A stretch of 64,000 nucleotides of DNA from a bacterium (GCA_965233585.1 CBDDTI010000747.1:128001-192000); one strand, 5' to 3'. Positions 2-22,615 are shown, counted from the first letter of the stretch. Notes: generated by a model not told the origin, from the letters alone. Numbers and translations are program-made.

Positions 2-1723
2 GTCAAAGTTTCTGACCAAAAACCACTTCTCTGGTCAAAAATTTTGGATAAAACAGAAACGTGGAGACCCCAACGCAGACATCATGCCAGCGTGTCTTTT
101 CAAGACAAGATGTGGATTTTCGGAGGAAATTCTGCGAGATCTAGAAATGACATTTGGAGTTCTGCTGATGGCAAGAATTGGAAGCGAGAGAAAGAACATG
201 CAGAATGGCCTGCCACCAACTTCTTGAAAGTTTTTGAATTTCAAAACAAGCTCTGGCTAATTGGGGGAAGGCGTGAGGGTGATATTTGGGTGTCTTCCGA
301 TGGTGTCCAATGGACTAAGAAAGCCTCACCAGATTTTCTAAAGAACTTATGGAGATTTGATGTGACGGTGTTTAACAACGCTATTTGGATCACAGGAGGA
401 TACGACTGGGAGGAAGAGGTGACGAGAGGTGCGACCGATGGAGTTTGGACATCGGCAAACGGAGTAGAATGGACTCAAGTGACGTCTGACAGTGGTTGGG
501 AACCTAGGCTAGAACATACCACTTTCGTTTTTGACGATAAATTATGGGTGATGGGAGGAAATGCAAGATTTTTTACGAATGATAAGCCTCTCAAAGACCT
601 TTGGAGTTCCTCTGACGGCAAAAGTTGGACAAAAGAAAAAGATGACTTGAACATTGACTTCCCAGAACAAGTTATTTTTGACAACAAGATTTGGTTGTTA
701 GATTCCGATGACACAGTTTGGTACTCTACGAATGGTCAAGATTGGCAAGATCAAGCCCAAATTCAAGGATTTGGATTGCACGAGTTTAGCAGTCTGGTGT
801 TTCAAGACAAAATCTGGGTGATTGATAAAGATGCACGGAGTCTTTTAAGCTCTGCTGATGGAAAGACTTGGAATATAGAATCGCCAAATTATTGGGCGCC
901 CAACACATCAAGTGTTGTTTTTAAAGATAAAATATGGACACTGGGCGGTTTTTGTGGTCAGGAGTGTTGGAATAACAATGTTTGGAGTTCTGCTGACGGA
1001 GTCAACTGGACAGAAGAACAGGCAGCAGCACCTTGGAAACCACGTTATAATCACACGAGCGTCGTGTTCAAAGATAGAATCTGGGTCATTGGTGGTTATC
1101 AGTCATGGGAGGCTGACATCTGGAGTTCTGCTGATGGAAAAACATGGCAAAAAGAAGTTGACCAAGTGGATTTTTCTGATAGTCAACGTTGGATTATTGC
1201 CAGAATGACAAGTCTTGTCTTTAAAGACAGAATTTGGGTTCTAGGTGCAGGAGATACACACAACGGAAACTACAAGAAAATTTATAGCTCTGACGATGGT
1301 AAGAATTGGAGGGAAGAGGGAACTTTTAACTTTCCTTTTCGTCATGCTAGTCTTGTCTTCCAAAATAAAATGTGGATTTTAGATAGTGAATTTAAGGGGG
1401 CTTGGAGTTCTGCTGATGGCAACACTTGGACGAAAGAAAGCACACTTCCAAGTGATTCATTTAACAATTTTTATGCTGTTGTCCTAGACAAAAGAATTTG
1501 GATTTTTGGAGGCTCTAGTAGCACAGGAAAAAACAGCCCTGTTTATAGTTCTGCTGACGGAAAAACATGGCAAAAAGAAAAGACCCCTGTGCCTTGGGTG
1601 GGAAGTAGCACACTTGCATCCGCCCTAGTCTTTCAAGACAAAATTTATGTCTTAGGTGGGTTTAATGGACAAAAAGTAGAATATGAAAACATCGTTTGGA
1701 AAGCAGAATTAGAAACCGAATAA
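2..1723 (+). CDS. Kelch-like/Asp-box beta-propeller repeat protein, 5' end outside window; paralogue of next gene
   Basis: Frame open from base 2. About 12 repeats of (S/A)xVFxxKIWxxGG...W(S)SxDGxxW. Bases 1-60 are identical to 2178-2237. Confidence 0.85.
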   Translation, partial: VKVSDQKPLLWSKILDKTETWRPQRRHHASVSFQDKMWIFGGNSARSRNDIWSSADGKNWKREKEHAEWPATNFLKVFEFQNKLWLIGGRREGDIWVSSDGVQWTKKASPDFLKNLWRFDVTVFNNAIWITGGYDWEEEVTRGATDGVWTSANGVEWTQVTSDSGWEPRLEHTTFVFDDKLWVMGGNARFFTNDKPLKDLWSSSDGKSWTKEKDDLNIDFPEQVIFDNKIWLLDSDDTVWYSTNGQDWQDQAQIQGFGLHEFSSLVFQDKIWVIDKDARSLLSSADGKTWNIESPNYWAPNTSSVVFKDKIWTLGGFCGQECWNNNVWSSADGVNWTEEQAAAPWKPRYNHTSVVFKDRIWVIGGYQSWEADIWSSADGKTWQKEVDQVDFSDSQRWIIARMTSLVFKDRIWVLGAGDTHNGNYKKIYSSDDGKNWREEGTFNFPFRHASLVFQNKMWILDSEFKGAWSSADGNTWTKESTLPSDSFNNFYAVVLDKRIWIFGGSSSTGKNSPVYSSADGKTWQKEKTPVPWVGSSTLASALVFQDKIYVLGGFNGQKVEYENIVWKAELETE

Positions 1724-1845
1724 TTGCCTTGAGTCTTTTTAAAAAAATCTTGTTTTACAACTTTTTTTATGGCATAGCTTGTCAAAAAAAACAATATAGT
1801 TATACTTTTCATATAAATTTCAAAATCATAACTTGTGAGGACAGC

Positions 1846-3972
1846 ATGAAAAAGTTGCTTATTTGGAGTTGGTTGCTATTTTTTATTGTTGGATGCGGAG
1901 ACCAAGAAGAAGAGAACATCAATACTAAAGTCAGTGAAAAAGTAGAGAAACTACAAGAGGAACAAGAACCTCCAGAATCTTCAAAGGAGGAGGAGGAACA
2001 ATTCCAAGACAAACAAGAACAACATCAGAATTATAAGGAATCTCAAGATATTCCCTTGAAACGTCCTGCTGTTCAAAAGAGTAAACCCAAAAAGGATAAA
2101 ACTCCGAAAAACCCCGTTGTTCAAAAAAGTAAACCTAAAAAAGATAAAACTCAACCCAAGCCAAAGCCCCAAGCAAATGTCAAAGTTTCTGACCAAAAAC
2201 CACTTCTCTGGTCAAAAATTTTGGATAAAACAGAAACTTGGAGACCACGAAGAAGTTCTTCCGCTGCTATTGCTTTTCAGGGAAAACTTTGGATTTTTGG
2301 TGGGAGCAGTGTTGGTAGAAAAAATGACATTTGGAATTCTGTTGATGGCAAGAATTGGACAAGAGTCAAAGAATTTGCCGAATGGTCACCGCGTCTTTTC
2401 CATGCTGTGTTTGAGTTTAAAAACGAGCTTTGGTTGATAGATCGTGATACTAGACCCAAAAACGATATTTGGAAATCTGCTGATGGCATCAATTGGACTT
2501 TGGTCAAAGATGCCTCAAAAGTGATTGAACGTTTTTTTATTCCTTCTGTTACGGTTTTCAAAAACCAAATTTGGATTATGGGAGACGTTAAAACTGACTC
2601 TGATGATTCATCTAGTGAGATATGGGTTTCTTCTAACGGTACAGAATGGACACAGATCGCAGTTGACCAAGATAACATATGGGAAGCCAGAGACTTTCAT
2701 CAATCCTTTGTATTTGATAACAAAATTTGGGTTGCAGGTGGAAGAGAATTTTTAGGTAAAAGGTTTGAAGATATTTGGAGTTCTGTTGATGGAAAAGTTT
2801 GGGTGAAAGAATTTGATGCCTCTCAAGCATCAGAATCTGACAGTCCTGACCATATTTACAATGCTGATTATGTTGTTTTTGATAACCAATTGTGGATGTT
2901 AGATTATACTTGGGATGATGAAACATACGCCTCATCAGGAACGGTTTGGAGTTCTGCCGATGGTCAAACATGGCAAAAAGAAGAGCAAATTCAAACATTC
3001 AATTCGTCAGAGTTCAATAGTCTAGTTTTTAATCATCAACTTTGGGTGATTGATTCAGCTGAACGCGATATTTGGAGTTCTGTTGATGGAAAAACTTGGA
3101 AGATAGAAGTTCCTAATTACTGGGCGCCCCATCATGCTAGCACTGTCTTTAAAGACAGAATTTGGATCATGGGTGGTTTTTGTGGTTCAGATTGCTGGAA
3201 CAACAATGTTTGGAGTTCTGCTGATGGAATCAATTGGCGAGAAGAACTAGATCATGCGGCTTGGAAACCTCGCTACATGCACACGGGCGTTGCCTTCAAA
3301 GATAGACTGTGGGTTATAGGTGGTTATCAATCATGGGAGGCTGACATCTGGAGTTCTGCTGATGGAAAAACATGGCAAAAAGAGTTTGACCAAACGAAAA
3401 GTCCAGAGCGATGGATTGGTCCTAGGATGACGAGTCTAGTTTTCAAAAACAAAATCTGGGTATTAGGAGCAGGAGATTATGATTCTAATACTGATAGGAA
3501 TGGTAAGGAGGTTTGGAGTTCTGCTGATGGCAAAAACTGGCAAAAAGAAGCAGAGTTGAATATGCCTTACAGTTATAGACATAGCAGTTTTGTATTCCAA
3601 AATAAAATCTGGTTCTTTCCTACTACATGGATTCAGACTAAGGATTACTATAGTTCCACAGATGGTCAGAAATGGGAGAAATCAGGAGAATTGCCTCAGC
3701 TGCCAAACTATAGCTATGTTGCTCCTTTGGGCGACAGAATTTGGTTTTTTGGAGGAGAAAAAGGTCAAGATCCTGATACCTCAATTGTTTATAGCACCCG
3801 AGATGGCAAAACATGGTCTAAAGAAAAAAACCCTGTTCCTTGGAATGATCAGGGACATAATTACGGTTCTGTTCTGACATTTAAGGATAAGCTCTATTTA
3901 TTGGGTGGATTCAATGATGAAAAGTCAGAATATGAGAATGTGGTTTGGCAAGCAGAATTAGAAACCGAATAA
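1846..3972 (+). CDS. Kelch-like/Asp-box beta-propeller lipoprotein
   Basis: ATG 1846 with GAGG RBS; signal peptide MKKLLIWSWLLFFIVGC ending in a lipobox Cys; E/Q/K/P-rich linker; about 12 WSSxDGxxW repeats. Confidence 0.85.
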   Translation: MKKLLIWSWLLFFIVGCGDQEEENINTKVSEKVEKLQEEQEPPESSKEEEEQFQDKQEQHQNYKESQDIPLKRPAVQKSKPKKDKTPKNPVVQKSKPKKDKTQPKPKPQANVKVSDQKPLLWSKILDKTETWRPRRSSSAAIAFQGKLWIFGGSSVGRKNDIWNSVDGKNWTRVKEFAEWSPRLFHAVFEFKNELWLIDRDTRPKNDIWKSADGINWTLVKDASKVIERFFIPSVTVFKNQIWIMGDVKTDSDDSSSEIWVSSNGTEWTQIAVDQDNIWEARDFHQSFVFDNKIWVAGGREFLGKRFEDIWSSVDGKVWVKEFDASQASESDSPDHIYNADYVVFDNQLWMLDYTWDDETYASSGTVWSSADGQTWQKEEQIQTFNSSEFNSLVFNHQLWVIDSAERDIWSSVDGKTWKIEVPNYWAPHHASTVFKDRIWIMGGFCGSDCWNNNVWSSADGINWREELDHAAWKPRYMHTGVAFKDRLWVIGGYQSWEADIWSSADGKTWQKEFDQTKSPERWIGPRMTSLVFKNKIWVLGAGDYDSNTDRNGKEVWSSADGKNWQKEAELNMPYSYRHSSFVFQNKIWFFPTTWIQTKDYYSSTDGQKWEKSGELPQLPNYSYVAPLGDRIWFFGGEKGQDPDTSIVYSTRDGKTWSKEKNPVPWNDQGHNYGSVLTFKDKLYLLGGFNDEKSEYENVVWQAELETE

Positions 3973-4128: not shown

Positions 4129-6309
4129 TTAAATTTTAATTTGACGTAAGCGATTGGAGTTTAGAACGACAGTGAGAGATGAAAGAGCCATCGCAATTCC
4201 TGCGATTGTAGGGTGTAACAACACCCCAAAGAATGGATACAACGCACCTGCCGCAACTGGGATTCCAAGGACATTGTAAATGAATGCGCCAAACAGGTTT
4301 TGTTTGATGTTACGCATCGTCAAACGAGCAACTTGAAGAGTGTGTAAAATGGTGGTTGATGAATGTTTAAGCAAGATGATGTCAGAAACCTGCAAGGCTG
4401 TGTCAGAACCTGAACCGACAGCACAACCTACATTGGCTTGAGCCAGTGCTGGGGCATCGTTAATTCCATCTCCTACCATACAAACAATCGCTCCTTTGGT
4501 CTGAAGGTTTTTAATGAACTCTTGTTTGTCTTGGGGGAGCAATAAGCCATGATGTTCTTGCACCTGAAGTTTTATAGCCACGTGTTCTACCACTTCCTGA
4601 CGATCCCCTGACAAAATCACTGTGCGAACTCCAAGTTTGTTCAGTTTTTGTACTGTCTCAAGAGCGTCTGCTTTGACAGCATCAGTCAAGAAGATTGCAC
4701 CAATCATCTGCCCATCAACTGCTACAAAAATAGGAGCAACGCCTGCTTTGGCAGGTTCTAACTGTAATAACTTGACTTGTCGTTCTTCAAAGAAACGACT
4801 TCCCCCAACCAAAACTTGTTTGCCTTCCAGCATTGCTTGTACCCCAAAACCTGAAAAACTTTCAAAATCACTGACAGCTTGCAACTCTAAATTTGTTGCA
4901 TGTTTGACAATGGCTTTGGCTAAAGGGTGTTCTGAGTGGGTTTCAACAGATGCCGCAATCCTCAACAATTCATCTTCTGACATGGTAGGTGAGATAATTT
5001 GTTCAACAATAGGTTTTCCCTCTGTCAACGTCCCAGTTTTGTCAAAAATCACATGTGTCAACTTCGCCATGTTCTGCAAGGCATTGCCATCTTGAATCAA
5101 TGCCCCCACTTCGGCAGCTTTGCCGATCCCTGCAATCACTGATGTTGGCGTTGCCAAACCCAAAGCACAAGGACACGCAATGACAAGCGTTGCAAGACCT
5201 ATGACCAGCATATAATTTGGAGCAAAGAAGAACCAAATGCTCATAGCTAACAATGCAATGCAGATGACAGTCGGTGCAAAATAATGACAAATCGTGTCAG
5301 CCAATTTGGCAAGTTCAGGCTTGGTATTTTGTGCATTTTTAACAGCACGAATGATGGCAGATAAGACGGTTGACTCACCTACATTTTCTGCACGAATGAT
5401 GAATGACCCCGAATGATTAGTGCTTCCTCCAATCACTTGAGACCCCGTTTCTTTATTCACAGGCTCCCATTCTCCAGTCAGCATAGATTCATCAACAGTG
5501 GAACGACCTTCTATCACTACTCCATCAACAGGAATTTGGTCGCCCGGACGAATTTTCAAGCAACCTCCAACCTGAATGGCTGACCATTCAATGATACGTT
5601 CTTGACCCTCTTCAATTAAAGTTGCAGTCTTTGGTCTTAAATTGAGCAGGGATTCTACCACAGAAGAAGTTTTAGTCCGCGATCGGATTTCTAGGGCTTT
5701 ACCAAATGAGACGAAACCTAGAATAAAAAGTGCAGTTTCAAAATAAAGATATTGAGAGTCTTTTGGAATTTGTTCAGTGAAAAGAATGACGACCATAGAA
5801 TAAACCCACGCCATACTTGTCCCCAAAGTGATGAGTGAATCCATGTTGGCAGAGCGATTTTTGAAAGCCTTCCATGCTCCAGCATAACGTTTGTGTCCTG
5901 AAAAGTACATCGCCACTGATGAAATGATGGCAATGAACCACACGGCAATTCTGTCTGTTGTCAAATCAATTTGGTAGGGAGACATAGACCATGCCATGAT
6001 TCCAGAACCCACCGCCAAGCTGATGATTGCCGCACGGATTGACTCTTTCCATTCCTGATTTTGGTTGGCTTTAGACTGTTGCAGTGTGGCAACATCACTT
6101 TCCACCAATGTTGCCTCATAACCTGCCTTTTTCAACAAAGACACCACTTGCTTGGGCTTGAAAGAAGACAACAAAGTCAACTCTTTTTCTGCAAAATTGA
6201 CTGATGCTGAATCTACCTCTTGTTGATTGGTCAAAAGACTTTCAATCGTTTTAACACAACCGCCACAAGAAATTCCTGCTAATGCAAATCGCATTTGATG
6301 TGTAGCCAT
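4129..6309 (-). CDS. copA: Cu(I)-translocating P1B-type ATPase
   Basis: N-terminal CGGC metal site, TGE, CPC, DKTGT, HP, GDGIND, YN and MALSS motifs. Confidence 0.93.
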   Translation of the reverse strand: MATHQMRFALAGISCGGCVKTIESLLTNQQEVDSASVNFAEKELTLLSSFKPKQVVSLLKKAGYEATLVESDVATLQQSKANQNQEWKESIRAAIISLAVGSGIMAWSMSPYQIDLTTDRIAVWFIAIISSVAMYFSGHKRYAGAWKAFKNRSANMDSLITLGTSMAWVYSMVVILFTEQIPKDSQYLYFETALFILGFVSFGKALEIRSRTKTSSVVESLLNLRPKTATLIEEGQERIIEWSAIQVGGCLKIRPGDQIPVDGVVIEGRSTVDESMLTGEWEPVNKETGSQVIGGSTNHSGSFIIRAENVGESTVLSAIIRAVKNAQNTKPELAKLADTICHYFAPTVICIALLAMSIWFFFAPNYMLVIGLATLVIACPCALGLATPTSVIAGIGKAAEVGALIQDGNALQNMAKLTHVIFDKTGTLTEGKPIVEQIISPTMSEDELLRIAASVETHSEHPLAKAIVKHATNLELQAVSDFESFSGFGVQAMLEGKQVLVGGSRFFEERQVKLLQLEPAKAGVAPIFVAVDGQMIGAIFLTDAVKADALETVQKLNKLGVRTVILSGDRQEVVEHVAIKLQVQEHHGLLLPQDKQEFIKNLQTKGAIVCMVGDGINDAPALAQANVGCAVGSGSDTALQVSDIILLKHSSTTILHTLQVARLTMRNIKQNLFGAFIYNVLGIPVAAGALYPFFGVLLHPTIAGIAMALSSLTVVLNSNRLRQIKI

Positions 6310-6343
6310 ATAATCGCCCTTAAAAAATTAAAATTTGATTTTC

Positions 6344-6823
6344 CTAAAACTGACTTTGCCTAATACGATAGATTTCAGGCCACAATGATTTAACATGTTT
6401 TAAAACTGCACGGATTTGGTCATCGTTCAATCTTCCTTTAAACCCGACCATTCTTGAGTTTGGATCCCCAGAACCATTTTTGATGATGCTGAATAACACT
6501 TCGTCAGAATGATGCCATGTATGACCTGTCCCGTTCAAGGCAGGCGCAATCAAAAGACCCGCAGCACTCATGCCCCCGCGAGGTTGATTAGAATTTTCTC
6601 CAATTCCATCTTTTCCATGGCAGGAAGCACAATTTTCTGCAAACAACTGTTTGCCATCGTAGCTCACACCAGATTGTAAATTTTGGTTAAGATTAAACTC
6701 ACTTTGTTTCGTCTGCTCATAAAAATACCATACCATGCCAATCGTCAAAATGGCTCCTAAGACGATGGCAAGTTGCCTTTGGTTTGCTTTTTGTCTCTTA
6801 GTTGATTTGTTTTTTCTTGACAT
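6344..6823 (-). CDS. Membrane-anchored c-type cytochrome
   Basis: One TM helix, CASCH heme motif, APALNGTGHTWHH segment, distal Met; ATG at 6823 preferred over TTG 6850. Confidence 0.85.
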   Translation of the reverse strand: MSRKNKSTKRQKANQRQLAIVLGAILTIGMVWYFYEQTKQSEFNLNQNLQSGVSYDGKQLFAENCASCHGKDGIGENSNQPRGGMSAAGLLIAPALNGTGHTWHHSDEVLFSIIKNGSGDPNSRMVGFKGRLNDDQIRAVLKHVKSLWPEIYRIRQSQF

Positions 6824-6846
6824 AGTTGAAAAATAAGGTAGGGGTT

Positions 6847-7116
6847 TCAAGAAATAGAATAAAGTTTAACAAGCTCTTGAATCATTGCCTGTTTTTTTTC
6901 AGGGGTTGACTCTAGCGTTGCAGCATAGACACAAGATTCCAGATGTTTACCAATGATTTTTCGCTCTGCTGAACAAATTGCAGAACGTGCCGCCTTGAGT
7001 TGCATCAAAATATCTGGGCAATATCTTTGATTTTCAATCATACGTTTCACACCTTCAAGTTGTCCAATAATCCGATTGATCCGAACCAGCTCGTTTTCAT
7101 GGCAGGGTGGCTTCAT
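6847..7116 (-). CDS. csoR: CsoR/RcnR-family metal-sensing repressor
   Basis: RINRIIGQLEGVKRM...YCPDILMQ...HLESC pattern; heads the copA operon. Confidence 0.9.
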   Translation of the reverse strand: MKPPCHENELVRINRIIGQLEGVKRMIENQRYCPDILMQLKAARSAICSAERKIIGKHLESCVYAATLESTPEKKQAMIQELVKLYSIS

Positions 7117-7370: not shown

Positions 7371-8804
7371 TTAGCCTCTTCTCCAACGATGGAACTTTTC
7401 AGAAAAGTTGATCGCCCATTCGGGAATATGTTTTTTCCTCCAAACTCCAGCAACATATTTGTTTGCTTCTGCATAAGAAGGATACAAATGAGTTGTTGCT
7501 AAAATATGGTTTAGTCCTAGTTTATGTTTCATTGCTAGAACAAACTCTGATAAAAGCTCAGCTGCATGTTCACCTACAATGGTCACACCCAAAATTTTGT
7601 CTTTGTTAACTGGTGTCAAGACTTTGATAAATCCATGGTTGACTTGGTCAACGATGGCTCTATCCAAATGGTCTAAATCAAACTCGGTTACTTCATAGTC
7701 AATGCCCTGAGATTTGGCAGTGCTTTCATGCAGCCCAACATGAGCAACTTGAGGGTGAGTAAAGATACAATAAGGCATGATGGAATGGTCACAACGAAAC
7801 CTTTTGAAGGGAGAAAAAAGAGCATTCATACTGGCGTACCAACCCTCATGTGCAGCTGCATGAGTGAATTGAGGAGGACCTGCGACATCTCCGCAAACAT
7901 AAATGGAAGGTACTTTTGTCTGTAAAAAAGCATCTGACACAACCCCTTGCCTGTTGACTTCTACCCCTAGCTTTTCCAGCCCCAAACCCTCAACATCTAT
8001 TTTTCTTCCCACTGCAAACAACACTTGATCAAATGGAATTTCAATTTCTTGTGCTTGATGTTCCGCAATCAGAACATTCTCTCCATTTTTCTTTTCAAAT
8101 TTGATTGTTTTGGATTTGCCGTAAAGTGTAATGCCTTCTTCTTGAAAACGTTTTTCCATGAAAAGAGAAGTGTCAATATCTTCCCTCGCCATTAAATGCT
8201 CTTCAAGAAACAACATGCTCACTTTTGAACCTAAGCGACTGAAGGCTTGTGCCATTTCGCAGCCAATAGCTCCTGCTCCTAAAACCAAAAGTCTTTTGGG
8301 CAGAGTGTCTATCTGCCACAAGGAATCACTGGTCAAGTAATCTATGTCTTCTAAACCTTCTATTGGTAACACATGAGGCGTGGAACCTGTTGCAATGACA
8401 ATGGCTCTAGTGGTTAAAGTGCGACCGTCCACCTCTACGGAGTGAGGGCTTGTGATAGTAGCATGCCCCTGAAGACATTCTACTCCAAGCTGCGTATATC
8501 GCTCAACGGAGTCATTTGGCTCAATTTTTTTGATTGACTCGTGTACTTTTGCCATCACATTTTTGAAGTCAAAATCAACATCTATGCTTTTTAAGCCAAA
8601 ATCTTGTGGAATTTTGGCAAGGTGTACCAGAGAGGCAACATTAATCAAGGCTTTACTTGGAACACAACCCGTATTCAAGCAATCTCCCCCCATTTTATGT
8701 TTTTCTATCAAAGCAACTTTCGCTTTTGAAGCACTGGCAATGTAAGAGCTAACCAATCCACCTGCACCTGCACCGATCACAATCAAGTTATAGTCGTATT
8801 TCAT
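7371..8804 (-). CDS. FAD-dependent pyridine nucleotide-disulfide oxidoreductase (dihydrolipoamide dehydrogenase/MerA-like)
   Basis: GAGAGG FAD motif, GGDCLNTGCVPSK redox disulfide, GAGAIG NAD motif; no C-terminal Cys-Cys pair. Confidence 0.88.
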   Translation of the reverse strand: MKYDYNLIVIGAGAGGLVSSYIASASKAKVALIEKHKMGGDCLNTGCVPSKALINVASLVHLAKIPQDFGLKSIDVDFDFKNVMAKVHESIKKIEPNDSVERYTQLGVECLQGHATITSPHSVEVDGRTLTTRAIVIATGSTPHVLPIEGLEDIDYLTSDSLWQIDTLPKRLLVLGAGAIGCEMAQAFSRLGSKVSMLFLEEHLMAREDIDTSLFMEKRFQEEGITLYGKSKTIKFEKKNGENVLIAEHQAQEIEIPFDQVLFAVGRKIDVEGLGLEKLGVEVNRQGVVSDAFLQTKVPSIYVCGDVAGPPQFTHAAAHEGWYASMNALFSPFKRFRCDHSIMPYCIFTHPQVAHVGLHESTAKSQGIDYEVTEFDLDHLDRAIVDQVNHGFIKVLTPVNKDKILGVTIVGEHAAELLSEFVLAMKHKLGLNHILATTHLYPSYAEANKYVAGVWRKKHIPEWAINFSEKFHRWRRG

Positions 8805-8809
8805 CGTTT

Positions 8810-9502
8810 TTATTTAGTTTTAGGTTTAAGCATTGCAAGCAATTTCTTGGAAGCAATGGGAAGTAATCCAACGAGGCTAAAGGCAATCGCTAACTCCAAA
8901 GATAAAATATCTGAAACCTGTTGAATTTGTGAAAGAGTTGTGCCAGCGTAAACATAAACAGCTGTCCCCAAAAGCATGCCGATTTGAGACACCCAATAAA
9001 AATGAACAGCCTTCACTGGTAAAAGAGCCATGAGCATATTGACTAAAAAGAACGGAAACAATGGCACAAGCCTTAACGCAAACAAATACCACAGTCCTTC
9101 CTTTTCAAAGGCTTCATTACATTTTGTAAGTGCATTGCTATATCGCTTTTGCACAGCCTCTTTGAAAAGATAACGTGTAATCAAAAAAGCAATAAAAGCC
9201 CCGAGTGAGCTGGCAAATGAGGCAATGGGAAGTCCTAACCCAAATCCAAAAATAGCTCCTGATAACAAGGTCAGCAAAGCCGCAATAGGCAGAGACAAGG
9301 CACTAGAAGCCGTGTAGATTGCAAAAAACACAATCACCACCGTCCATTGATTTTCAGCATAAAGATTTTGCCATTCTTGATAACGTTCTTTGATGTATTC
9401 TAGGCTCAAAACCTCTCCTAAACCTGAGAGAAAAAAGCCTACGATTGCCAAAATGATCGCAAGCACTAACAGTGGCTTCAAAAATTTTTGATATGGTTTC
9501 AT
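8810..9502 (-). CDS. TVP38/TMEM64 (DedA superfamily) membrane protein
   Basis: Hydrophobic; LRLVPLFPFFLVN signature; ATG 9502 overlaps the upstream TGA (ATGA). Confidence 0.88.
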   Translation of the reverse strand: MKPYQKFLKPLLVLAIILAIVGFFLSGLGEVLSLEYIKERYQEWQNLYAENQWTVVIVFFAIYTASSALSLPIAALLTLLSGAIFGFGLGLPIASFASSLGAFIAFLITRYLFKEAVQKRYSNALTKCNEAFEKEGLWYLFALRLVPLFPFFLVNMLMALLPVKAVHFYWVSQIGMLLGTAVYVYAGTTLSQIQQVSDILSLELAIAFSLVGLLPIASKKLLAMLKPKTK

Positions 9503-10350
9503 GGTAAAAATTGTTTTAACCAAGACAGTCTTTTGCACGATGAAAATTTTTGATGTAAGGTAACCAAATCATCTAAAGTCTCCATGTCAAGTTTGTTGTC
9601 TAGGTAGTGAAGAGTTGTAGAAAGTTGATGTATAAACTGCTTAAAGGTGTCATGTTGTGAGTAAGCAACATTCTTAAAGACAAAGCACGGCAAAAATTGT
9701 TTTAACCAAGATAGCCTCTTGCATGATGAAAACTCTTGATGCAGGGCAATCAAATCATCTAAGGTATCCACATCAAGTTTGGTATCTAGGTAGTGAATGG
9801 GAGTTGTAGAGAGTTGATGCACAAGTTGCTTGAGAGTGTCATGTCGTGAATAGGTAACATTTTTAAAGACAAAGTCAGGTAAGTCTATCGCCCCCCCAAA
9901 CAAATAAAAACCACCATCTACACTTGCACCAATAACAATTTGCTTCGGATTTTGCTCAAGATGACGAGATGCCTCAAGCAATAAATCAGATTCTAATTGG
10001 GGACTGTCTGTCCCGATGATGATGACTGAATCGTAATTTTGTTTGAGATGAGAGTAAATACTGTGCAGTCTATCGCCCAGAGTCCCTTGACCTGTCCAAA
10101 TGACTTGAAAATCTTGTTCCCGGTGATTTTGCCAATATTTATGAGTGACGCCTTCTTCTTCTGCAACTGCAATGTATAAATCAATTTGTTCACTCTTTAT
10201 AGTTCCAACAGTCTGGCAGACCTGTCTTTGAGATTGATGATAGAAACACTCTGCCTGATCCTGACCAATACTTTGTGCAAGCCTCGTTTTGACTGGGGAA
10301 AGTCCAACTGTCTTAGCAAAAATGGCTATAGCACACTGAGTTCGAGACAT
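9499..10350 (-). CDS. DUF2064/TIGR04282-like (CofC-like) transferase with duplicated C-terminus
   Basis: IFAK...VKTRLA, QG.LGDRL, IIGTDSPQ, G.SVDGGFYL, DVDTLDDL motifs. Confidence 0.85.
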   Translation of the reverse strand: MSRTQCAIAIFAKTVGLSPVKTRLAQSIGQDQAECFYHQSQRQVCQTVGTIKSEQIDLYIAVAEEEGVTHKYWQNHREQDFQVIWTGQGTLGDRLHSIYSHLKQNYDSVIIIGTDSPQLESDLLLEASRHLEQNPKQIVIGASVDGGFYLFGGAIDLPDFVFKNVTYSRHDTLKQLVHQLSTTPIHYLDTKLDVDTLDDLIALHQEFSSCKRLSWLKQFLPCFVFKNVAYSQHDTFKQFIHQLSTTLHYLDNKLDMETLDDLVTLHQKFSSCKRLSWLKQFLP

Positions 10351-10530
10351 AGATTTGGGAAATCAGTTTGAAAAATAAGCTAACATAGACATCAGAGTCT
10401 CATCACACTACGAAAAGACAAAGTCTTAAAAACAGTCTTCAATTATATTGACCACCAGACTAAAAGTCAATCTAAAAATAACATTTAATTACATTTGCTG
10501 TCAAACCGAAAGCCGGTGTGAATGAAAAAA

Positions 10531-11274
10531 TCATCTCTTTTTTTGAAAAAGATAACGTTGCTTCCACCACAAGTACTGATGTTGTAAGGTGATTTTAAGC
10601 CAACCATAAGCCATATATTTTCTGGCACTGGTCAGTAGTGGAATAGGTATCTTATTAAAAGGAATTTTCAAAAATTTTGCTTGTAAGGTCAGTAGATGAT
10701 CTTCACCATAGAGGCAGTTGACTGGGTAACCTTGTAATCTTTCAAAAAGCTCACGATGCAAACAAAAACCTTGATCACCAAAAGGGGCATGAAAGAGTTT
10801 GGAGCGAACATTTGCTCCTAACGCGTTGAGTCTCATCAATTCTTGAACAAAACGTTCTTTCAAGCCAACCGACTGAAAAGGCATAAAGGCTAACTGAAAA
10901 TAATGAAAGTGTTTTGGATTCTTTTTTAGGGATTGAATCAGTTGAGACAACACATTCTCTGGCAAAAAGCTGTCAGCATGTAAGAACCACAAAAACGGAT
11001 ATTGAGCCAATTTTGCACCTGCATTTAAAGCTAATGCTCTTGGATTCAAGCCTGCCTGTGCTTCTGAACACTCAACATGAACCCATTTAACGCGATCGGA
11101 AGGCACTGAGCTTTGTTGTTTAATGAGGTTTTGGGGGCTGCACAAAAGGATTTCATAGAGGCAGTCGCTGCTGGAAAAATCAGACGTCAGGCTTTCGTAA
11201 TGTTGCTCAACTTGGTGAACCAACCTTTGCCAGTTTGGCTCATTGGGTGCCAGAGGAATGATGATGCTAATCAT
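10531..11274 (-). CDS. GT2 glycosyltransferase, TIGR04283-like
   Basis: ISIIIP, RALALNAGA, FLHADS, FGDQG, GED, TSARKY motifs. Confidence 0.85.
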   Translation of the reverse strand: MISIIIPLAPNEPNWQRLVHQVEQHYESLTSDFSSSDCLYEILLCSPQNLIKQQSSVPSDRVKWVHVECSEAQAGLNPRALALNAGAKLAQYPFLWFLHADSFLPENVLSQLIQSLKKNPKHFHYFQLAFMPFQSVGLKERFVQELMRLNALGANVRSKLFHAPFGDQGFCLHRELFERLQGYPVNCLYGEDHLLTLQAKFLKIPFNKIPIPLLTSARKYMAYGWLKITLQHQYLWWKQRYLFQKKR

Positions 11275-12110
11275 TTCATCAAAACTTCAAGCATTGCCTG
11301 TTTTTGTGGTGGAATGGCATTTTGAGGGGTGAGCAGTGCATTGCATAAAGACATTCTTTGGGTGTCGTCAATGGGGGGCAAATCCTGCTGGAGCAACTGG
11401 CATAACAAAGATTTGGCTTTTTCTACACTTTGCCCATATCGCTGAATCACATCGGAGACATTGACGTGTTGGTCGGGGTTGTCCTTCCAACAATCATAAT
11501 CAGTCACAATCGCAATCGTGGCATAATTGATCTGCGCTTCTTTGGCTAAAAAGACTTCAGGGACATTCGTCATACCTACCAAATCACAGCCTGCAGTTCT
11601 TAAAAAATGGCTTTCTGCTTGAGTCCCTAATCTTGGTCCGTCAACGCAAGCGTAAGTTTTGTTAGTGTGCATGGTGAGCTTCATCGCTTGTGCTTGGGTT
11701 GCAATCCACTCGGTCAAAAGTTCGCAAGTAGGTTTTGCAGTAGAAACGTGAGCGGCAAGTCCTTCGCCAAAAAAAGTCTTTTCACGATGTCCTTTCACGA
11801 AGTCAAAATATTGACTGGGAATCACAAAATCGCCGGGGTGGATGTCCTCTCGCAAAGAACCCACTGCTGAAAGACCAATGATTTGCTTCACTCCCAATGA
11901 CTTTAGGGCATAAATGTTTGCCCTGTAATTGATTTCATGTGGTAAAAACTGATGATTTTGCCCGTGCCTTGCCAAAAAAAATAAAGACTTCTCTTGATAA
12001 GTTGCTTGAATCACTTCAGCTTGACCAAAAGGAGTCTGAATTTGTTTGACTTGGTCAATATGTAAATTTTCCAGCTGATAAATTCCTGTTCCACCAATAA
12101 TTGCTAGCAT
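11271..12110 (-). CDS. mtnP: MTA phosphorylase-family purine nucleoside phosphorylase
   Basis: IIGGTG, LARHG..H...PH.INYRAN, SAVGSL, DGPRLGT.AE, VGMT..PE, VTDYDCW. Confidence 0.9.
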   Translation of the reverse strand: MLAIIGGTGIYQLENLHIDQVKQIQTPFGQAEVIQATYQEKSLFFLARHGQNHQFLPHEINYRANIYALKSLGVKQIIGLSAVGSLREDIHPGDFVIPSQYFDFVKGHREKTFFGEGLAAHVSTAKPTCELLTEWIATQAQAMKLTMHTNKTYACVDGPRLGTQAESHFLRTAGCDLVGMTNVPEVFLAKEAQINYATIAIVTDYDCWKDNPDQHVNVSDVIQRYGQSVEKAKSLLCQLLQQDLPPIDDTQRMSLCNALLTPQNAIPPQKQAMLEVLMK

Positions 12111-12117
12111 CGTTTGT

Positions 12118-12927
12118 TTATTTTTGAGGATTAGTCCAAGGTATCCATAGTAAATTCCACAGATTCGTTTTGTCAAAGTTTTTGTATTCGTTTAAACCCA
12201 GAACCATTTTTTCCTGCTCATATTTAGGATGGGCAGTGTAAGTCCCGAACAACTTATCCCAACATGCCAAATGAAACCCAAAGTTGCTATGATGTTCTTT
12301 GGCAATCACAGAATGATGAATGCGGTGCATGTCTGGAGTGACGAATAGGTAATGCAAAACTTGGTTAAGTTTTGGAGACAATTTGATATTGGAGTGGGTG
12401 AACATTGCCATTACATTCAATACAATCTCAAAAAGAAGCACGGCTTCAAAAGGGATTCCAAAGACAATCACAATCAATGCTTTCAAAAGTACAGACAACA
12501 GAATTTCCAGAGGGTGAAACCTGATCCCTGATGAGACATCTAAATCGTGGTCAATGTGATGTACTTTATGAAGACGCCAAAGTGCAGGGACCCAATGAAA
12601 GACGACATGTTGTAGATAAATGAAAAAATCTAGCAGAATGATGCTCACGGCAACAGTAGTCCAGTAAAGCCATGGCGTGTTAATTTCAAGAAGGTTGAAA
12701 AGCCCCCAGCTTTTTTGTTGAGCTAAAATGGCAACTCCTCCAACACTAAATGGTAGCAGATACTTTACAAGCAGTTGGCTAATAAAAAGCAGACCAAAAT
12801 TTCTAACATACCTAAAATTTTGCGGATAATTCCATTTTCTTTTGGGAACCCACCTTTCCAAAAAAAATAAAATCCCCAATGTACCTAAAAAGATAGCAAT
12901 ACGCCATAAGCTACTGTCGTTCATCAT
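12118..12927 (-). CDS. Sterol desaturase/fatty acid hydroxylase family membrane protein
   Basis: His boxes HVVFH, HKVHH, RFHP, HRIHH; several TM segments. Confidence 0.88.
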   Translation of the reverse strand: MMNDSSLWRIAIFLGTLGILFFLERWVPKRKWNYPQNFRYVRNFGLLFISQLLVKYLLPFSVGGVAILAQQKSWGLFNLLEINTPWLYWTTVAVSIILLDFFIYLQHVVFHWVPALWRLHKVHHIDHDLDVSSGIRFHPLEILLSVLLKALIVIVFGIPFEAVLLFEIVLNVMAMFTHSNIKLSPKLNQVLHYLFVTPDMHRIHHSVIAKEHHSNFGFHLACWDKLFGTYTAHPKYEQEKMVLGLNEYKNFDKTNLWNLLWIPWTNPQK

Positions 12928-13002
12928 TTCTTAATTATATTGGATTGTTAAATGATTAGGTGATAGTTGATGGTTTCTTTTTTAAGAAATAGATACAATT
13001 TT

Positions 13003-13956
13003 TTAGTCTAAACTACCACTGCAAGAACTTCCAGCTCCTGCAGTGCAACCATAGCAGTGACTTCCCAACGCGATCCCTTGACTTAAATCTGAAAAATCAT
13101 TGATGCCCCAAATGGTTGTTGGTTTAGAGTCAATTGGTATTTCTAACATTTGATTGAAATCACAATCATAAATCTGTCCATCCCAACTGATAGACACTAA
13201 ATTAGTACACATGACATTGTGAGCAACATCTGGGTTAAAGTTGTTGGTGAGTAACTCCATATACTCTTGAAACTTTCCTTTCCTTTGAAGCCACCACAAG
13301 TACCTTTTAATCGGCATATTGGTTATGGTAAATAACTGATTGAACACGATGCCAAAATGTTTTTGTAAATGCTCTTTATATGCTTCTTCCAACGCTTTTT
13401 GGTCACCGGGCAAGACATTGCTGGTTGGATTGTAAACCAAATTTAAATTTAGACCTTTTTGACGTCCGTATCCTAGTTGATTGAGTTGTTGCAAAGACAA
13501 AATGCTTTTATTAAAAACGCCTCTGCCTCGTTGTGAGTCCACATTATCTTCCAAATAACAAGGGAGAGATGCCACAATTTGCACCTGATGGTCTCTCAAG
13601 AAAACGGCTGTGTCTTCATACCCTTTCTCCTGCAAAATCGTCAAATTACAGCGATCTATCACCTCTTTCTTCATCTGCCTTAGCTCCTTGACAAAATAGA
13701 CAAAATGAGGGTTCATCTCAGGAGCGCCACCAGTGATGTCAATCGTCTTGACAGATGGTGCATGTTCCAGCAATTCTAACAAGCGATTGACCGTTGTCAA
13801 AGTCATGTTTTCTGTTCGTATCGGGCTAGATTCCACATGACAATGCGAACATGCCTGATTGCAACGTTTACCAATATTAACTTGCAATGTTGTGATTATT
13901 TTTCTCTGCAACGTAATACGATGTTCTTGTAATTTTTTAGCGAATGGTGTGAACAT
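13003..13956 (-). CDS. arsS: Arsenosugar biosynthesis radical SAM protein (DUF3641 Cys-rich C-terminus)
   Basis: TLQVNIGKRCNQACSHCHV (CxxxCxxC), DITGGAPE, ASLPCY, YDCDFNQ, HCYGCTAGAGSSC. Confidence 0.9.
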   Translation of the reverse strand: MFTPFAKKLQEHRITLQRKIITTLQVNIGKRCNQACSHCHVESSPIRTENMTLTTVNRLLELLEHAPSVKTIDITGGAPEMNPHFVYFVKELRQMKKEVIDRCNLTILQEKGYEDTAVFLRDHQVQIVASLPCYLEDNVDSQRGRGVFNKSILSLQQLNQLGYGRQKGLNLNLVYNPTSNVLPGDQKALEEAYKEHLQKHFGIVFNQLFTITNMPIKRYLWWLQRKGKFQEYMELLTNNFNPDVAHNVMCTNLVSISWDGQIYDCDFNQMLEIPIDSKPTTIWGINDFSDLSQGIALGSHCYGCTAGAGSSCSGSLD

Positions 13957-14056
13957 AGGAGACCTAAATCATAATATTTACTTAAATTCCCCACATTGTA
14001 ACATATAAGATAAAATTTTGACTAAAAAATCCTATCTTATAAAAAAATTGGCATTG

Positions 14057-14739
14057 TTAAGTAATAAGTGATAGCTGATTATTCCGTTTTGCCATGAACA
14101 AAAGAACAGAATATTGTAATGCTTTAAGAGACTTGCTGTAACATTTGGTTTTCCTTCTCATTCTTGCCAAGAAATGTCTCAAGAGAGAATTATACCCTTC
14201 TATCGTGTATGTTTCTGCCTTGGAACATGTATGAATTTCTTTGGGAATGACTTGTTTGTAAGCCTTGCAGTGATCAGTCATCACCTGAAGAGGTTTTGTT
14301 TCCTTGACCTTGTCCCATAAATGCCTACAGGCTTTTGAGTCTCTGTTTCCAAGCACATAATTGATAAATTGCTTCCCACGTCTATCAACAGCAATCCAGA
14401 GCCAGCAGTAGTTTTTTTTGACTGGATGTAGGTGTGCATTTCATCAATTTCCATAATTTCAATGTCTGTGTCCTTTCTTAATGCCTTGAGCTGTTCGCCA
14501 AAACTACAGACCCAATTATAAACTGAAACATGAGAACAATTCAGCAAACGACCGATTGACCTGAAACCAAGACCCTCCAAATACAACTCTAATGCTCTTC
14601 TTTTGATCTGTGGTGAGATTTGACCACGATAGGACTTGGTATATTGATAGTTGCAGGCATTGCAACGCCTCCTCGGTTTACCATATAAGAAACCATTCTT
14701 AACCGTCTTCTCACTTTCACATCTAGGACACGACTTCAT
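14057..14739 (-). CDS. IS1 transposase InsAB, -1 programmed frameshift
   Basis: InsA Zn ribbon (CPRC...CNAC), HTH, EIDEMHTY; A8C slippery run at 14411-14420; InsB in the -1 frame (TDH, IEGYN..RH.LAR). Confidence 0.88.
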
Positions 14740-14775
14740 TGCTACACCATGACTATCAATTCAATTAAATGAACT

Positions 14776-15535
14776 GGCATTGTTAAGTAATAAGTGATAG
14801 CTGATTATTCCGTTTTGCCATGAACAAAAGAACAGAATATTGTAATGCTTTAAGAGACTTGCTGTAACATTTGGTTTTCCTTCTCATTCTTGCCAAGAAA
14901 TGTCTCAAGAGAGAATTATACCCTTCTATCGTGTATGTTTCTGCCTTGGAACATGTATGAATTTCTTTGGGAATGACTTGTTTGTAAGCCTTGCAGTGAT
15001 CAGTCATCACCTGAAGAGGTTTTGTTTCCTTGACCTTGTCCCATAAATGCCTACAGGCTTTTGAGTCTCTGTTTCCAAGCACACAATTGATAAATTGCTT
15101 CCCACATCTATCAACAGCAATCCAGAGCCAGCAGTAGTTTTTTTTGACTGGATGTAGGTGTGCATTTCATCAATTTCCATAATTTCAATGTCTGTGTCCT
15201 TTCTTAATGCCTTGAGCTGTTCGCCAAAACTACAGACCCAATTATAAACTGAAACATGAGAACAATTCAGCAAACGACCGATTGACCTGAAACCAAGACC
15301 CTCCAAATACAACTCTAATGCTCTTCTTTTGATCTGTGGTGAGATTTGACCACGATAGGACTTGGTATATTGATAGTTGCAGGCATTGCAACGCCTCCTC
15401 GGTTTACCATATAAGAAACCATTCTTAACCGTCTTCTCACTTTCACATCTAGGACACAACTTCATTGCTACACCATGACTATCAATTCAATTAAATGAAC
15501 TTAATATCGCATATCACTTATAGTTTAACAATACC
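14776..15535 (-). mobile_element. IS1-family element (inner copy, 760 bp)
   Basis: Same IRs; 8-bp target duplication AATGAACT at 14768-14775 and 15536-15543. Confidence 0.92.
14783..15465 (-). CDS. IS1 transposase InsAB, -1 programmed frameshift (second copy)
   Basis: Near-identical to 14057-14739; slippery run at 15137-15146. Confidence 0.88.
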
Positions 15536-18939: not shown

Positions 18940-19986
18940 TTATTTTTTGGGTCTGCGATCGTTGGGTTGGTCAAAGTACTCCCATTTTGACCCATCAGGA
19001 AGTGTAGCGTCCATGTCAGTCAACGCACTGTACAAGTCAGGTCGTCGGTCTTTGATGTAATCGCTTTGTCCGTAGGGGTGAGTATATTCATAATCGCCGG
19101 GAATACAGTCAACAACAATCAAAGTCTCCACATTTTCTGCACGTGCAAGGTTATCTCCATAAGGGTCAGAAACCGCACTATTGCCCATGTAAACACCGCT
19201 TAAATCACCATTAGTCCGCCATTCCCACAAAGCACGATTACTATATGCGGCAAAAACCTTGTTTTGTCTGGCATTAGCAGGAATCACTTGCAATGTCGCA
19301 TCAGGATAAGCCCACATGCTCCAAGAATCATCAGGAAGTTTGACGCCAACATCTGCCGCAGTTGGCATGACAATGAGTTGAGCGCCTTTGAGAGCAAGGA
19401 TACGATAAAGGTCTGCAAACTCTGCTTCATAGCAGTTCAACAGTCCAACATTGATTCCGTTGACTGGAGCAACAGGATAGGCGTCTTTATGCTCATCTTT
19501 ATCAGCATAGCCAAAATGCCAGTTTGCTCGTTCGCAATCACCCCAAAGCGATGTTTTACGGTAGTTTGCCAAAAATGAACCATCTTGGTCATACATGATG
19601 ATGGAATCATAATAACGAGTCTCACCATTCCTCACTTCTTTTTCTGCATAAGACATGACAATTCCCATTTGATGCTCTTTGCCAACTTCTGCCATACGTT
19701 TCAAACGTGGGTCATCTTGGGTGACACCTACATTTTCAATATCGCCCGGCAGAATGTTGTAACCGCAAAAATAAAGTTCAGGGAACACCATTAACTGAAC
19801 ACCATGCTTTGCACCAATCGCCACGCTTTTTTTAAAAAGCTCAAAGTTTCTCTCAATCGCCTCTGCATCACCGACCCAAGCACTAATCTGGTGCATTCCT
19901 AGACGGATTCCTTCACCCTTTTTGGGAGCTTCTGCTCCACCGACTTTTTTTCTAATGACCGGGAAGTCAAACTGAAATTGTCCCAT
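18940..19986 (-). CDS. Carbon-nitrogen hydrolase (nitrilase superfamily) amidohydrolase
   Basis: Catalytic triad context FPELY, YRKT, NCYE; RRPDLY. Confidence 0.85.
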   Translation of the reverse strand: MGQFQFDFPVIRKKVGGAEAPKKGEGIRLGMHQISAWVGDAEAIERNFELFKKSVAIGAKHGVQLMVFPELYFCGYNILPGDIENVGVTQDDPRLKRMAEVGKEHQMGIVMSYAEKEVRNGETRYYDSIIMYDQDGSFLANYRKTSLWGDCERANWHFGYADKDEHKDAYPVAPVNGINVGLLNCYEAEFADLYRILALKGAQLIVMPTAADVGVKLPDDSWSMWAYPDATLQVIPANARQNKVFAAYSNRALWEWRTNGDLSGVYMGNSAVSDPYGDNLARAENVETLIVVDCIPGDYEYTHPYGQSDYIKDRRPDLYSALTDMDATLPDGSKWEYFDQPNDRRPKK

Positions 19987-20022
19987 AATTCTCCATAAAT
20001 TAAGAATGATTAAAAATAAAAA

Positions 20023-21552: not shown

Positions 21553-21556
21553 GGAT

Positions 21557-22615
21557 TTATTGAACTTGAAAAACAGGCTTAAAATATTTTGGGGCTAAAA
21601 AGTTTTCGCGTGGGAAAAGACCTAAAGTATCGGCATTGATGACGTAGATTTCTGGACCAACATGCCTCAATACAGGTTTGCCTTCCAGCACTCTGACAGC
21701 TTGGTCAATCGCAATTTTGCCTTGTATGACAGTAGAGTCTGTTGGAGATGCCACGACACTACCTTGAGAAATGGCATCGTAAACGAAGGGAGTTAGGTAG
21801 TAAGACAAGACTTTGATGTTTTCAGAACGATTGACCTCTTGCAAATACTTTACTGCTACCTCTGCAGTCACAGCAGAACCAACAATGTAATCTACATCAG
21901 GAGTCTTTTTTAGGACATCTTTCAAGAGGTCTAATTGTTCTTGATTGCTTAAACCACCATAGTTAACAGAGGTGATGGAAACAGCCCCCTTGCTTGTTGA
22001 AGCTGTAAAACCCTTATGAGCAGCACTGACAAAACCTGCCCCTTTGGGTCCAGGAAACCATGCAATATTGACATTGTTAAACCCTTTAGGATGCCTTAAA
22101 ACAAGGTAGTCTCCCACACTCCTACCCATATCTACAAATGACACCAATGATTTGGCAGACATTTGTCTTGTGGACATGCCGTTGATCATATCCACCACCA
22201 CAATTCCACTTGAACGTAGCTGACCAACCAGCCCATTTAAACCATCATACGAAATCGCTCCGACAATCACTGCGGCTGCATTCTTTGAACAATCCTTGAT
22301 TTGTTGAATCTGAACAGGTAGATTGCCATACCCTCCAGCTTCTACAAGATTGATCTTGACGCCAAGCCTCCTTGCTTCCTCTACAATCCCATAATTCACT
22401 GACACCCAATAAGCATCTTGCATGTGAGGAAACGAAACGCAGATTTTCCAAGCAGAAGTCGCTTTTGTCAAAGGACGATACTTGATTCCGATGTTCGGGC
22501 TTTCAGAGTTAAAAGGAGGATGCCAAACTCGGATATCATAATCCCATGAATTAGCCCAAACTCCCATATTCAACCAGCTGAAACCCAAGATCAATAAGCC
22601 AATTTTCAATAACAT
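21557..22615 (-). CDS. torT: TorT-like periplasmic binding protein
   Basis: Signal peptide; WKICVSFPHMQDAYWVSVNYG, EAGGY, WFPGP, PTDS.V.QG.IAIDQAVR.LEG. Confidence 0.8.
   Translation of the reverse strand: MLLKIGLLILGFSWLNMGVWANSWDYDIRVWHPPFNSESPNIGIKYRPLTKATSAWKICVSFPHMQDAYWVSVNYGIVEEARRLGVKINLVEAGGYGNLPVQIQQIKDCSKNAAAVIVGAISYDGLNGLVGQLRSSGIVVVDMINGMSTRQMSAKSLVSFVDMGRSVGDYLVLRHPKGFNNVNIAWFPGPKGAGFVSAAHKGFTASTSKGAVSITSVNYGGLSNQEQLDLLKDVLKKTPDVDYIVGSAVTAEVAVKYLQEVNRSENIKVLSYYLTPFVYDAISQGSVVASPTDSTVIQGKIAIDQAVRVLEGKPVLRHVGPEIYVINADTLGLFPRENFLAPKYFKPVFQVQ

Follow-up and report, generated by a model that had tools for sequence, protein, structure and literature searches.

The ArsS Cassette and Its Genes

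The subject of this analysis is a gene cassette in a 64,000-nucleotide stretch of bacterial DNA (GCA_965233585.1 CBDDTI010000747.1:128001-192000), hereafter the window. The cassette combines arsS, which encodes a member of the radical S-adenosylmethionine (SAM) family that forms DDMAA (5′-deoxy-5′-dimethylarsinoyl-adenosine), with six further genes, among them one for a phosphorylase of the methylthioadenosine phosphorylase (MTAP) family (Table 1). NCBIfam already names ArsS and both transferase families of the cassette (TIGR04282 and TIGR04283) as arsenosugar genes. Of most interest is a subfamily of MTAP with an altered active site, which is a good candidate for the enzyme that removes adenine from the arsenic nucleoside.

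An earlier note on this DNA had described seven co-oriented, mostly abutting genes, and that description holds. Window open reading frames and reading of the DNA itself give seven full-length genes on the minus strand, all without frameshift, and four of the six junctions abut (7 bp, two 4-bp ATGA overlaps, and 5 bp), the other two being gapped by 75 and 180 bp. One of the overlaps joins the MTAP stop to the start of the family 2 glycosyltransferase (GT2) gene. From the DNA, the likely starts of MTAP and DedA are the ATG codons at 12110 (279 aa) and 9502 (230 aa). The 3′ end of the DUF2064 gene carries a tandem duplication of ~186 nt (9500-9685 versus 9686-9874, 82-84% identical) that adds ~62 aa and preserves the ATGA overlap with dedA. 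A promoter and terminator scan gave counts not above those of shuffles (18 versus 20.1, and 7 versus 6.9). Chance grouping of the seven genes is ruled out, since a related locus (L066) holds the same seven in permuted order.

Table 1. Coordinates of the cassette genes and the adjoining insertion sequences, counted from the first letter of the window.
Feature	Position	Strand	Description
arsS	13003..13956	-	317 aa; adenosylase of the radical SAM type, DDMAA synthase family
fatty acid hydroxylase/sterol desaturase family protein	12118..12927	-	269 aa, membrane di-iron; PF04116 E 3e-27
MTAP-family phosphorylase, cluster-specific subfamily	11271..12110	-	279 aa; DGPRLG instead of EGPxFS
GT2 (GT-A fold) glycosyltransferase, TIGR04283-like	10531..11274	-	small, 247 aa; Trp/basic helix at C-terminus
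DUF2064/TIGR04282 CofC-like nucleotidyltransferase-fold protein	9499..10350	-	283 aa including duplicated C-terminal ~62 aa
TVP38/TMEM64 (VTT/DedA) membrane protein	8810..9502	-	230 aa; PF09335 E 3e-22
FAD-dependent class I pyridine nucleotide-disulfide reductase	7371..8804	-	477 aa; PF07992 + PF02852
tandem pair of IS1-family copies (each 726 bp)	14040..15491	.	PF03400; repeat spacing 726; context, outside pathway

A Distinct MTAP Subfamily

The window MTAP is named by general MTAP models only (TIGR01694, 284.7 bits against a cut-off of 274.85), and an Atlas search with it returned generic MTAP clusters only. It was aligned to the human enzyme (1cb0), with N-terminal residues placed through alignments to the Sulfolobus (2a8y) and RsfP (4glf) enzymes. 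The set that binds phosphate and ribose and recognizes the base through the DxD motif is kept (T8, R48, H49, A82, M180, T181, T203, D204, and D206). Among the 15 active-site residues listed for human MTAP in the consulted part of one study (PMC5738077), 13 are retained or replaced conservatively; F177 and S178 are the two exceptions.

These two exceptions characterize the whole subfamily. Human Phe177-Ser178 is replaced by Leu-Gly in all 66 clade rows (L161-G162 in the window protein), whereas Phe-Ser stands in all 37 comparison rows; with the position of E173 included, a D/L/G signature in 66/66 clade rows faces E/F/S in 37/37 others. The changes of E173 to D, N243 to S, and T239 to R are also clade-wide or nearly so. 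The signature positions lay outside the search patterns used for collecting the clade; an invariant QYFDFVKG motif, itself a search pattern, was discounted as clade evidence.

That the MTAP forms a clade of its own is supported by the DGPRLG signature and by two trees, from which one truncated locus (L136) was omitted. In a quick tree of 104 rows, whose outsiders included 30 MTAPs from relatives of the source genome and three second copies, the window MTAP and 66 relatives form one clade (Shimodaira-Hasegawa-like approximate likelihood ratio test 100, branch 1.71). The clade is kept, with a support of 0.95, in a FastTree of 258 rows that includes 143 independent 50%-cluster representatives and 11 added rows, and all nine representatives with the LG motif fall inside an 80-row group (0.93) that has no member with the FS motif. 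Among 150 representatives, EGPxFS occurs in 89 and [DE]GPxLG in 11. The signature marks a specialization of MTAP and says nothing on substrate. The Leu/Gly changes may make room for a bulkier 5′ group, and F177 presumably also lines the methylthio pocket.

Three MTAPs carry N-terminal extensions of ~130 aa. In one of them (P0017) the extension has a match to LMWPc (ArsC-like, PF01451), which may point to a fusion of arsenate reductase-like domains with MTAP; the extensions of the two others (P0013 and P0044) have no Pfam match.

Genes That Travel With the Phosphorylase

A contig scan with the window MTAP yielded 71 loci. Four distant ones, archaeal or from the candidate phyla radiation, stand outside the counts; the 67 close loci (49-67% identity) come from Alpha- and Gammaproteobacteria, Desulfobacterales, one Chlamydiales metagenome-assembled genome (MAG), and one Marinimicrobia MAG. 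GT2 is present in 57 of the 67, always directly after MTAP, and DUF2064 in 62; either is found in 65 and both in 54. DedA (20 loci), the reductase (29), and the desaturase (2) are less frequent, and ArsM-like and ArsC-like genes occur in 24 and 13 loci, respectively (17 by clustering for the latter). Natural fusions occur inside cassettes between DUF2064 and ArsM (L096:6393-8225), between DUF2064 and a radical SAM protein (L102:8416-10017, with many ambiguous residues), and between DedA and the reductase (L077:11601-13796).

As a general rule, linkage of MTAP to arsS, which the earlier note had suggested checking across genomes, did not hold up. True arsS is found in 5 of the 67 clade loci, and the 25 arsS loci of 24 relatives of the source genome have no MTAP in the fetched flanks (five of the loci being under 4 kb); three of the relatives do have an MTAP with the canonical motif at a distance of 12-16 kb. 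Elsewhere, a phosphorylase adjoins arsS in a single genome among 85 others with arsS, and its motif is the canonical EGPQFS. These 85 are the tested part of 108 arsS-positive genomes in a 401-genome phylum sample that is apparently dominated by two lineages and in which many genomes are fragmented. All 85 have some phosphorylase elsewhere, and 51 of 80 have one over the MTAP cut-off. Among the relatives, MTAP over the cut-off is found in 23/24 arsS-positive versus 16/36 arsS-negative genomes, a pattern that fits a housekeeping enzyme working in trans. In the relatives, TIGR04282 goes together with arsS even where the two are unlinked (23/24 versus 4/36). The link is thus MTAP-GT2-DUF2064 together with either ArsS or another radical SAM protein, not MTAP-arsS as such.

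ArsS and a Second Radical SAM Family

The window ArsS scores 444.1 bits against TIGR04167 (cut-off 300), a model that carries the name rSAM_SeCys, and matches PF04055 and PF12345 (DUF3641, E 1e-55). Its CxxxCxxC motif is formed by C32, C36, and C39, and further cysteines lie toward the C-terminus (C250, C265, C301, C304, and C312). It is 61-62% identical to the ArsS of the two closest loci (L066 and L076) and 53-56% identical to those of the host's own family. Since ArsS is closer to these two than to its own family, and since the MTAP nests among foreign loci, the cassette was probably acquired horizontally.

The slot of ArsS is held in 58 of the 67 cassettes by a second, uncharacterized radical SAM family (e.g., L083:9083-9991, L113:8784-9710, and L072:12156-13076). 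One or the other is present in 63 loci and none has both; a whole-genome search of 50 carriers found arsS only in the same five that have it in the cassette. The best NCBIfam match of the second family is Rv1681-like and far below cut-off, and its members are 21-24% identical to ArsS. That they are full-length homologs of ArsS was considered and rejected, hhalign aligning only 176 N-terminal columns. The C-terminal cysteine pattern is similar between the two families, as seen in a MAFFT alignment only.

Downstream and Accessory Enzymes

The gene identities given by the earlier note stand over curated cut-offs for arsS, MTAP, and DUF2064, the last with 145.5 bits against TIGR04282 (cut-off 134) and clustered with arsS. 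GT2 had been called TIGR04283-like; this is its only NCBIfam match (123 bits, E 1e-35), but it lies below the cut-off of 182.

The comparison of DUF2064 with CofC is supported by the predicted structure (first 221 aa, predicted local distance difference test score (pLDDT) 95.4). In a Foldseek search with this model, 3cgx ranked first and CofC/FbiD guanylyltransferases (7p97, 6bwg, and 2i5e) took ranks 2-9, with template modeling (TM) scores of 0.65-0.74, above GlmU and KdsB and at 14-19% identity. The protein scores 28.5 against the CofC model TIGR03552, below its cut-off of 105. CofC-type enzymes activate small C3 phospho-acids, 7p97 being a 3-phosphoglycerate guanylyltransferase, and activation of the acceptor is therefore a real alternative to formation of a nucleoside diphosphate (NDP) sugar.

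For GT2, assignment as a GT-A transferase agrees with a predicted GT-A fold (pLDDT 90.7), whose best matches are GT-A enzymes at TM ~0.6 with no close solved relative; a sequence search of the PDB gave no match. The motifs H99-x-D101, G166-D-Q-G, and E191-D-H are invariant across 44 sequences.

The remaining genes are less constant. The hydroxylase/desaturase has intact His boxes at 107, 120, and 201 and a weak OlsE match (87.7 bits, cut-off 475). It had been counted as a member of the pathway, but it is accessory, since it occurs in only 2 of the 67 loci; it also stands beside arsS in locus L253. The reductase is below all named cut-offs (best NCBIfam match PRK06370, 465 bits against 620). 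Its redox CxxxxC is intact and it has no C-terminal Cys; with 370 bits against the MerA cut-off of 454 and the C-terminal cysteine pair missing, it does not qualify as a mercuric reductase. Many related loci encode DedA and the reductase as one fused protein, 710-754 aa long in L077 and related loci. A role of the DedA-reductase pair as a replacement for ArsM was unsupported in 45 well-flanked loci (2 × 2 table 7/16/11/11, Fisher p = 0.23).

The Source Genome

The source assembly comprises 12.0 Mb in 747 contigs and is 92.5% complete, with a reported contamination of 2%. Five gene-dense contigs account for ~2.9 Mb; the other 742, which are small and for the most part gene-poor, hold ~9 of the 12 Mb. 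Within this assembly arsS is single-copy and the window MTAP is the sole MTAP, so that the second, housekeeping enzyme that had been sought is not found; of two further PF01048 proteins, one is MtnN over its cut-off. No match to mtnA or to TIGR04169 was detected in the genome.

The window had been said to contain no arsM, and this was borne out. Searches with profiles and tblastn found none in the rest of the assembly either, at its completeness of 92.5%: ArsM models reached at best 40.9 bits against a cut-off of 263 (NF008823) and 24.5 against 400 (NF038099), and tblastn with a cassette-type ArsM gave a single weak match of 111 aa. Across the 50 carrier genomes, an ArsM-like gene is present in 24 and was not found in the other 26. 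The two closest loci (L066 and L076) have no arsM in either locus or genome. A homolog of DUF547, whose gene occurs in 7 of the 67 cassettes, is located on the window's own contig at 929452-930228, away from the cassette.

A Proposed Route From DDMAA to Arsenolipids

Arsenosugars and arsenosugar phospholipids are reported as principal arsenic species in marine algae (PMC11009773; PMC4278203), and arsenosugar phospholipids in algae and a cyanobacterium (PMC11009773). In the portions of the literature consulted, the account covers the ArsM and ArsS steps only: ArsS makes DDMAA, and the subsequent loss of adenine is mentioned without an enzyme (PMC13598754; PMC8552651; PMC12159101; bioRxiv 2026.04.29.721666; for related literature see also PMC8787705; PMC12608789; 10.1101/2024.02.01.577332). 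Within titles and the openings of abstracts, a scope outside which most subscription journals and supplements lie, neither a named adenine-removing enzyme nor an MTAP in such a cassette appears.

We consider it probable that the cassette was acquired horizontally, that its ArsS makes DDMAA from imported dimethylarsenic, that the dedicated MTAP releases adenine, and that DUF2064 and GT2 make an arsenoriboside or arsenolipid. In the first step, by analogy with orthologs for which this activity has been shown, the window ArsS would couple the 5′-deoxyadenosyl radical with dimethylarsenite, DMA(III), to give DDMAA. With no arsM found, the cell would take up its dimethylarsenic from the surroundings. 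In the second and central step, the MTAP-subfamily enzyme would phosphorolyze DDMAA to adenine and 5-dimethylarsinoyl-5-deoxy-alpha-D-ribose 1-phosphate. Genomes with a housekeeping MTAP may use that enzyme in trans, which would explain most arsS loci without a linked MTAP.

In the third step, DUF2064 and GT2 would turn the arsenoribose 1-phosphate into a beta-riboside, with either glycerol or a phospholipid as the acceptor. Between the two possible divisions of labor the balance is close, tilting slightly toward DUF2064 making NDP-arsenoribose for GT2, rather than DUF2064 activating a C3 phospho-acceptor and GT2 using the 1-phosphate directly. A phosphorylase followed by an inverting GT2, that is, two inverting steps, would yield a beta-riboside, and natural arsenosugars have the beta-riboside configuration. 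The most economical end product would be arsenoribosylated phosphatidylglycerol, an arsenosugar phospholipid; arsenosugar phospholipids are ribosylated phosphatidylglycerol. In a possible fourth step, the DedA-reductase pair might serve in uptake or reduction of the arsenical or in lipid flipping, with the desaturase as optional tailoring.

A more specific form of this proposal is put forward tentatively, at somewhat less than even chances: the DGPRLG enzymes may be a dedicated "arsenonucleoside phosphorylase" subfamily with DDMAA as substrate and arsenoribose 1-phosphate as product, and a CofC-like enzyme together with a membrane-facing GT2 would then transfer this product onto phosphatidylglycerol. 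The earlier designation of the cluster as a complete pathway was too strong, as no source of dimethylarsenite is encoded and the enzyme steps are predictions from sequence.

Weighing the Alternatives

Several observations weigh against the proposed route. The clade was collected with peptide patterns from the window MTAP, and the carriers are related, partly incomplete MAGs. True arsS is rare in the clade loci, where the second radical SAM family prevails, and the single arsS-adjacent phosphorylase outside the clade is of the canonical type. The change at F177 could bear on contacts with the base and not on the 5′ group, because F177 is grouped with the purine-ring contacts in the consulted part of PMC5738077; there, the trypanosome equivalent of F177 touches an enlarged 5′ group, by docking only. 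MtnN is missing in 26 of the 51 genomes searched, and so the cassette MTAP could be the sole scavenger of by-products in these. ArsC of both types, Acr3, and ArsB were not found in the source genome, which thus points to arsenic only through the family match of ArsS; the lack of a detected ArsM-like gene in just over half of the carriers and in the source genome belongs here as well.

The points on salvage bear on an unlikely alternative, in which the MTAP clears only 5′-deoxyadenosine or methylthioadenosine, arising from uncoupled radical SAM turnover and SAM decay, and salvages the adenine, while DDMAA is deadenylated by MtnN or GT2. Canonical residues for binding phosphate, ribose, and the 6-aminopurine fit such a role, as do the many arsS loci without a linked MTAP and the genomes that lack MtnN. 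However, MtnA is required for use of methylthioribose 1-phosphate or 5-deoxyribose 1-phosphate in methionine salvage and the dihydroxyacetone phosphate shunt, and mtnA was found in only 5 of 50 carrier genomes, compared with 50 of 60 relatives of the source genome, counts that are not independent tests because the genomes are related and partly incomplete. In the 45 other carriers and the source genome, disposal would thus leave a sugar phosphate without a known salvage route. A second MTAP occurs in three of the 50 carriers, all with mtnA, and in two of these it lies 164 bp from mtnA with the cassette copy elsewhere. MtnN is already present in 25 of the 51 genomes (the source and 24 carriers), so that a disposal role is redundant in half of the genomes and possible in the other half. 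Nor would disposal be expected to place GT2 directly after MTAP, overlapping it in the window, or to hold the active-site changes invariant in the clade; and since the ArsS product retains the adenosyl group, little 5′-deoxyadenosine is expected. Together, the uncoupling from salvage, the separate clade, and the linkage to GT2 and DUF2064 favor a role in the pathway over recycling of by-products.

Similarly improbable is a product whose 5′ substituent is not arsenic but, for example, sulfur, selenium, or antimony, at least in genomes without arsM such as the source. The arsenic genes not found there, the 26 carriers with no ArsM-like gene detected, an uncharacterized radical SAM protein as the commonest partner, and the name of the TIGR04167 model all suit this reading. 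Against it, the window ArsS scores well above the cut-off of a family whose characterized member uses DMA(III), 24 of the 67 loci carry an ArsM-like gene and 13-17 an ArsC-like gene within the cassette itself, and one MTAP (P0017) appears fused to an ArsC-like domain.

Least likely is a silent or decaying cassette in a host rich in insertion sequences (IS), where the IS1 pair, whose nearer copy ends 83 bp upstream of the arsS start, may have removed a promoter or an upstream arsM and where the tail of DUF2064 is duplicated, for none of the seven reading frames is interrupted and their catalytic motifs are preserved, and the missing arsM need not stem from IS activity, given that the two closest loci also lack it in locus and genome. 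IS1 is abundant in the host: it gave 36 BLAST rows, 33 of them near full length, all within the five large contigs. Some 33 near-identical full-length copies in ~2.9 Mb suggest a recent IS expansion.

Implications

The cluster offers a small set of enzymes for the steps after ArsS, and DGPRLG is a sequence marker by which the candidate phosphorylase can be told apart from housekeeping MTAPs. If the proposed route is correct, the gap that follows ArsS in the biosynthesis of arsenosugars and arsenolipids would be closed, surveys based on arsS would miss most carriers of the cassette, and bacteria without arsM may make lipids from arsenic that other organisms have methylated. Scavenged dimethylarsenic would then feed arsenolipid synthesis in many marine heterotrophs and animal-associated bacteria, most of them through an unnamed substitute for ArsS and about half without arsM.

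Neighboring Genes

Directly downstream of the cassette, on the same strand (4129-7116), lie genes for a csoR-like repressor, a cytochrome c, and the copper ATPase copA. They are placed outside the cassette because the 71 related loci yielded no copy of any of them. Farther on (44-3972), two large repeat proteins of 559 and 758 aa are encoded next to each other; they show a recurring W-x-S-x-DG-x-x-W and are Kelch/BNR-like by eye. On the other side of the cassette, a nitrilase-like hydrolase, a PLP decarboxylase-like protein, and a periplasmic binding protein, also named by eye, stand in a row (18940-22615).

Comparison With Known Systems

The ArsM-ArsS arsenosugar pathway of Synechocystis sp. 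PCC 6803, reportedly described by Xue et al. in 2019 and Cheng et al. in 2021, shares with the window an ArsS that is over the curated cut-off and has CxxxCxxC and DUF3641. It differs in that no arsM was detected in the window genome, and in that the cassette adds an MTAP-subfamily phosphorylase, a desaturase, DedA, and a reductase. The arsenosugar set of NCBIfam (TIGR04167, TIGR04282, and TIGR04283, with the ArsM model NF038099 and TIGR04169) is matched by TIGR04167 and TIGR04282 over cut-off and by a clustered TIGR04283-like GT2; unlike that set, the window has its GT2 below cut-off, nothing over cut-off for NF038099, and no match to TIGR04169.

CofC and FbiD (7p97, 6bwg, and 2i5e) are the characterized folds closest to the DUF2064 model, although the protein shares little identity with them and falls well short of the CofC cut-off. 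Finally, the window MTAP belongs to the same family as the human (1cb0), Sulfolobus (2a8y), and metagenomic RsfP (4glf) enzymes and keeps their phosphate, ribose, and DxD residues. In contrast to these enzymes, the cassette clade has D/L/G/S at E173/F177/S178/N243, goes without MtnA, and has GT2 directly after it.

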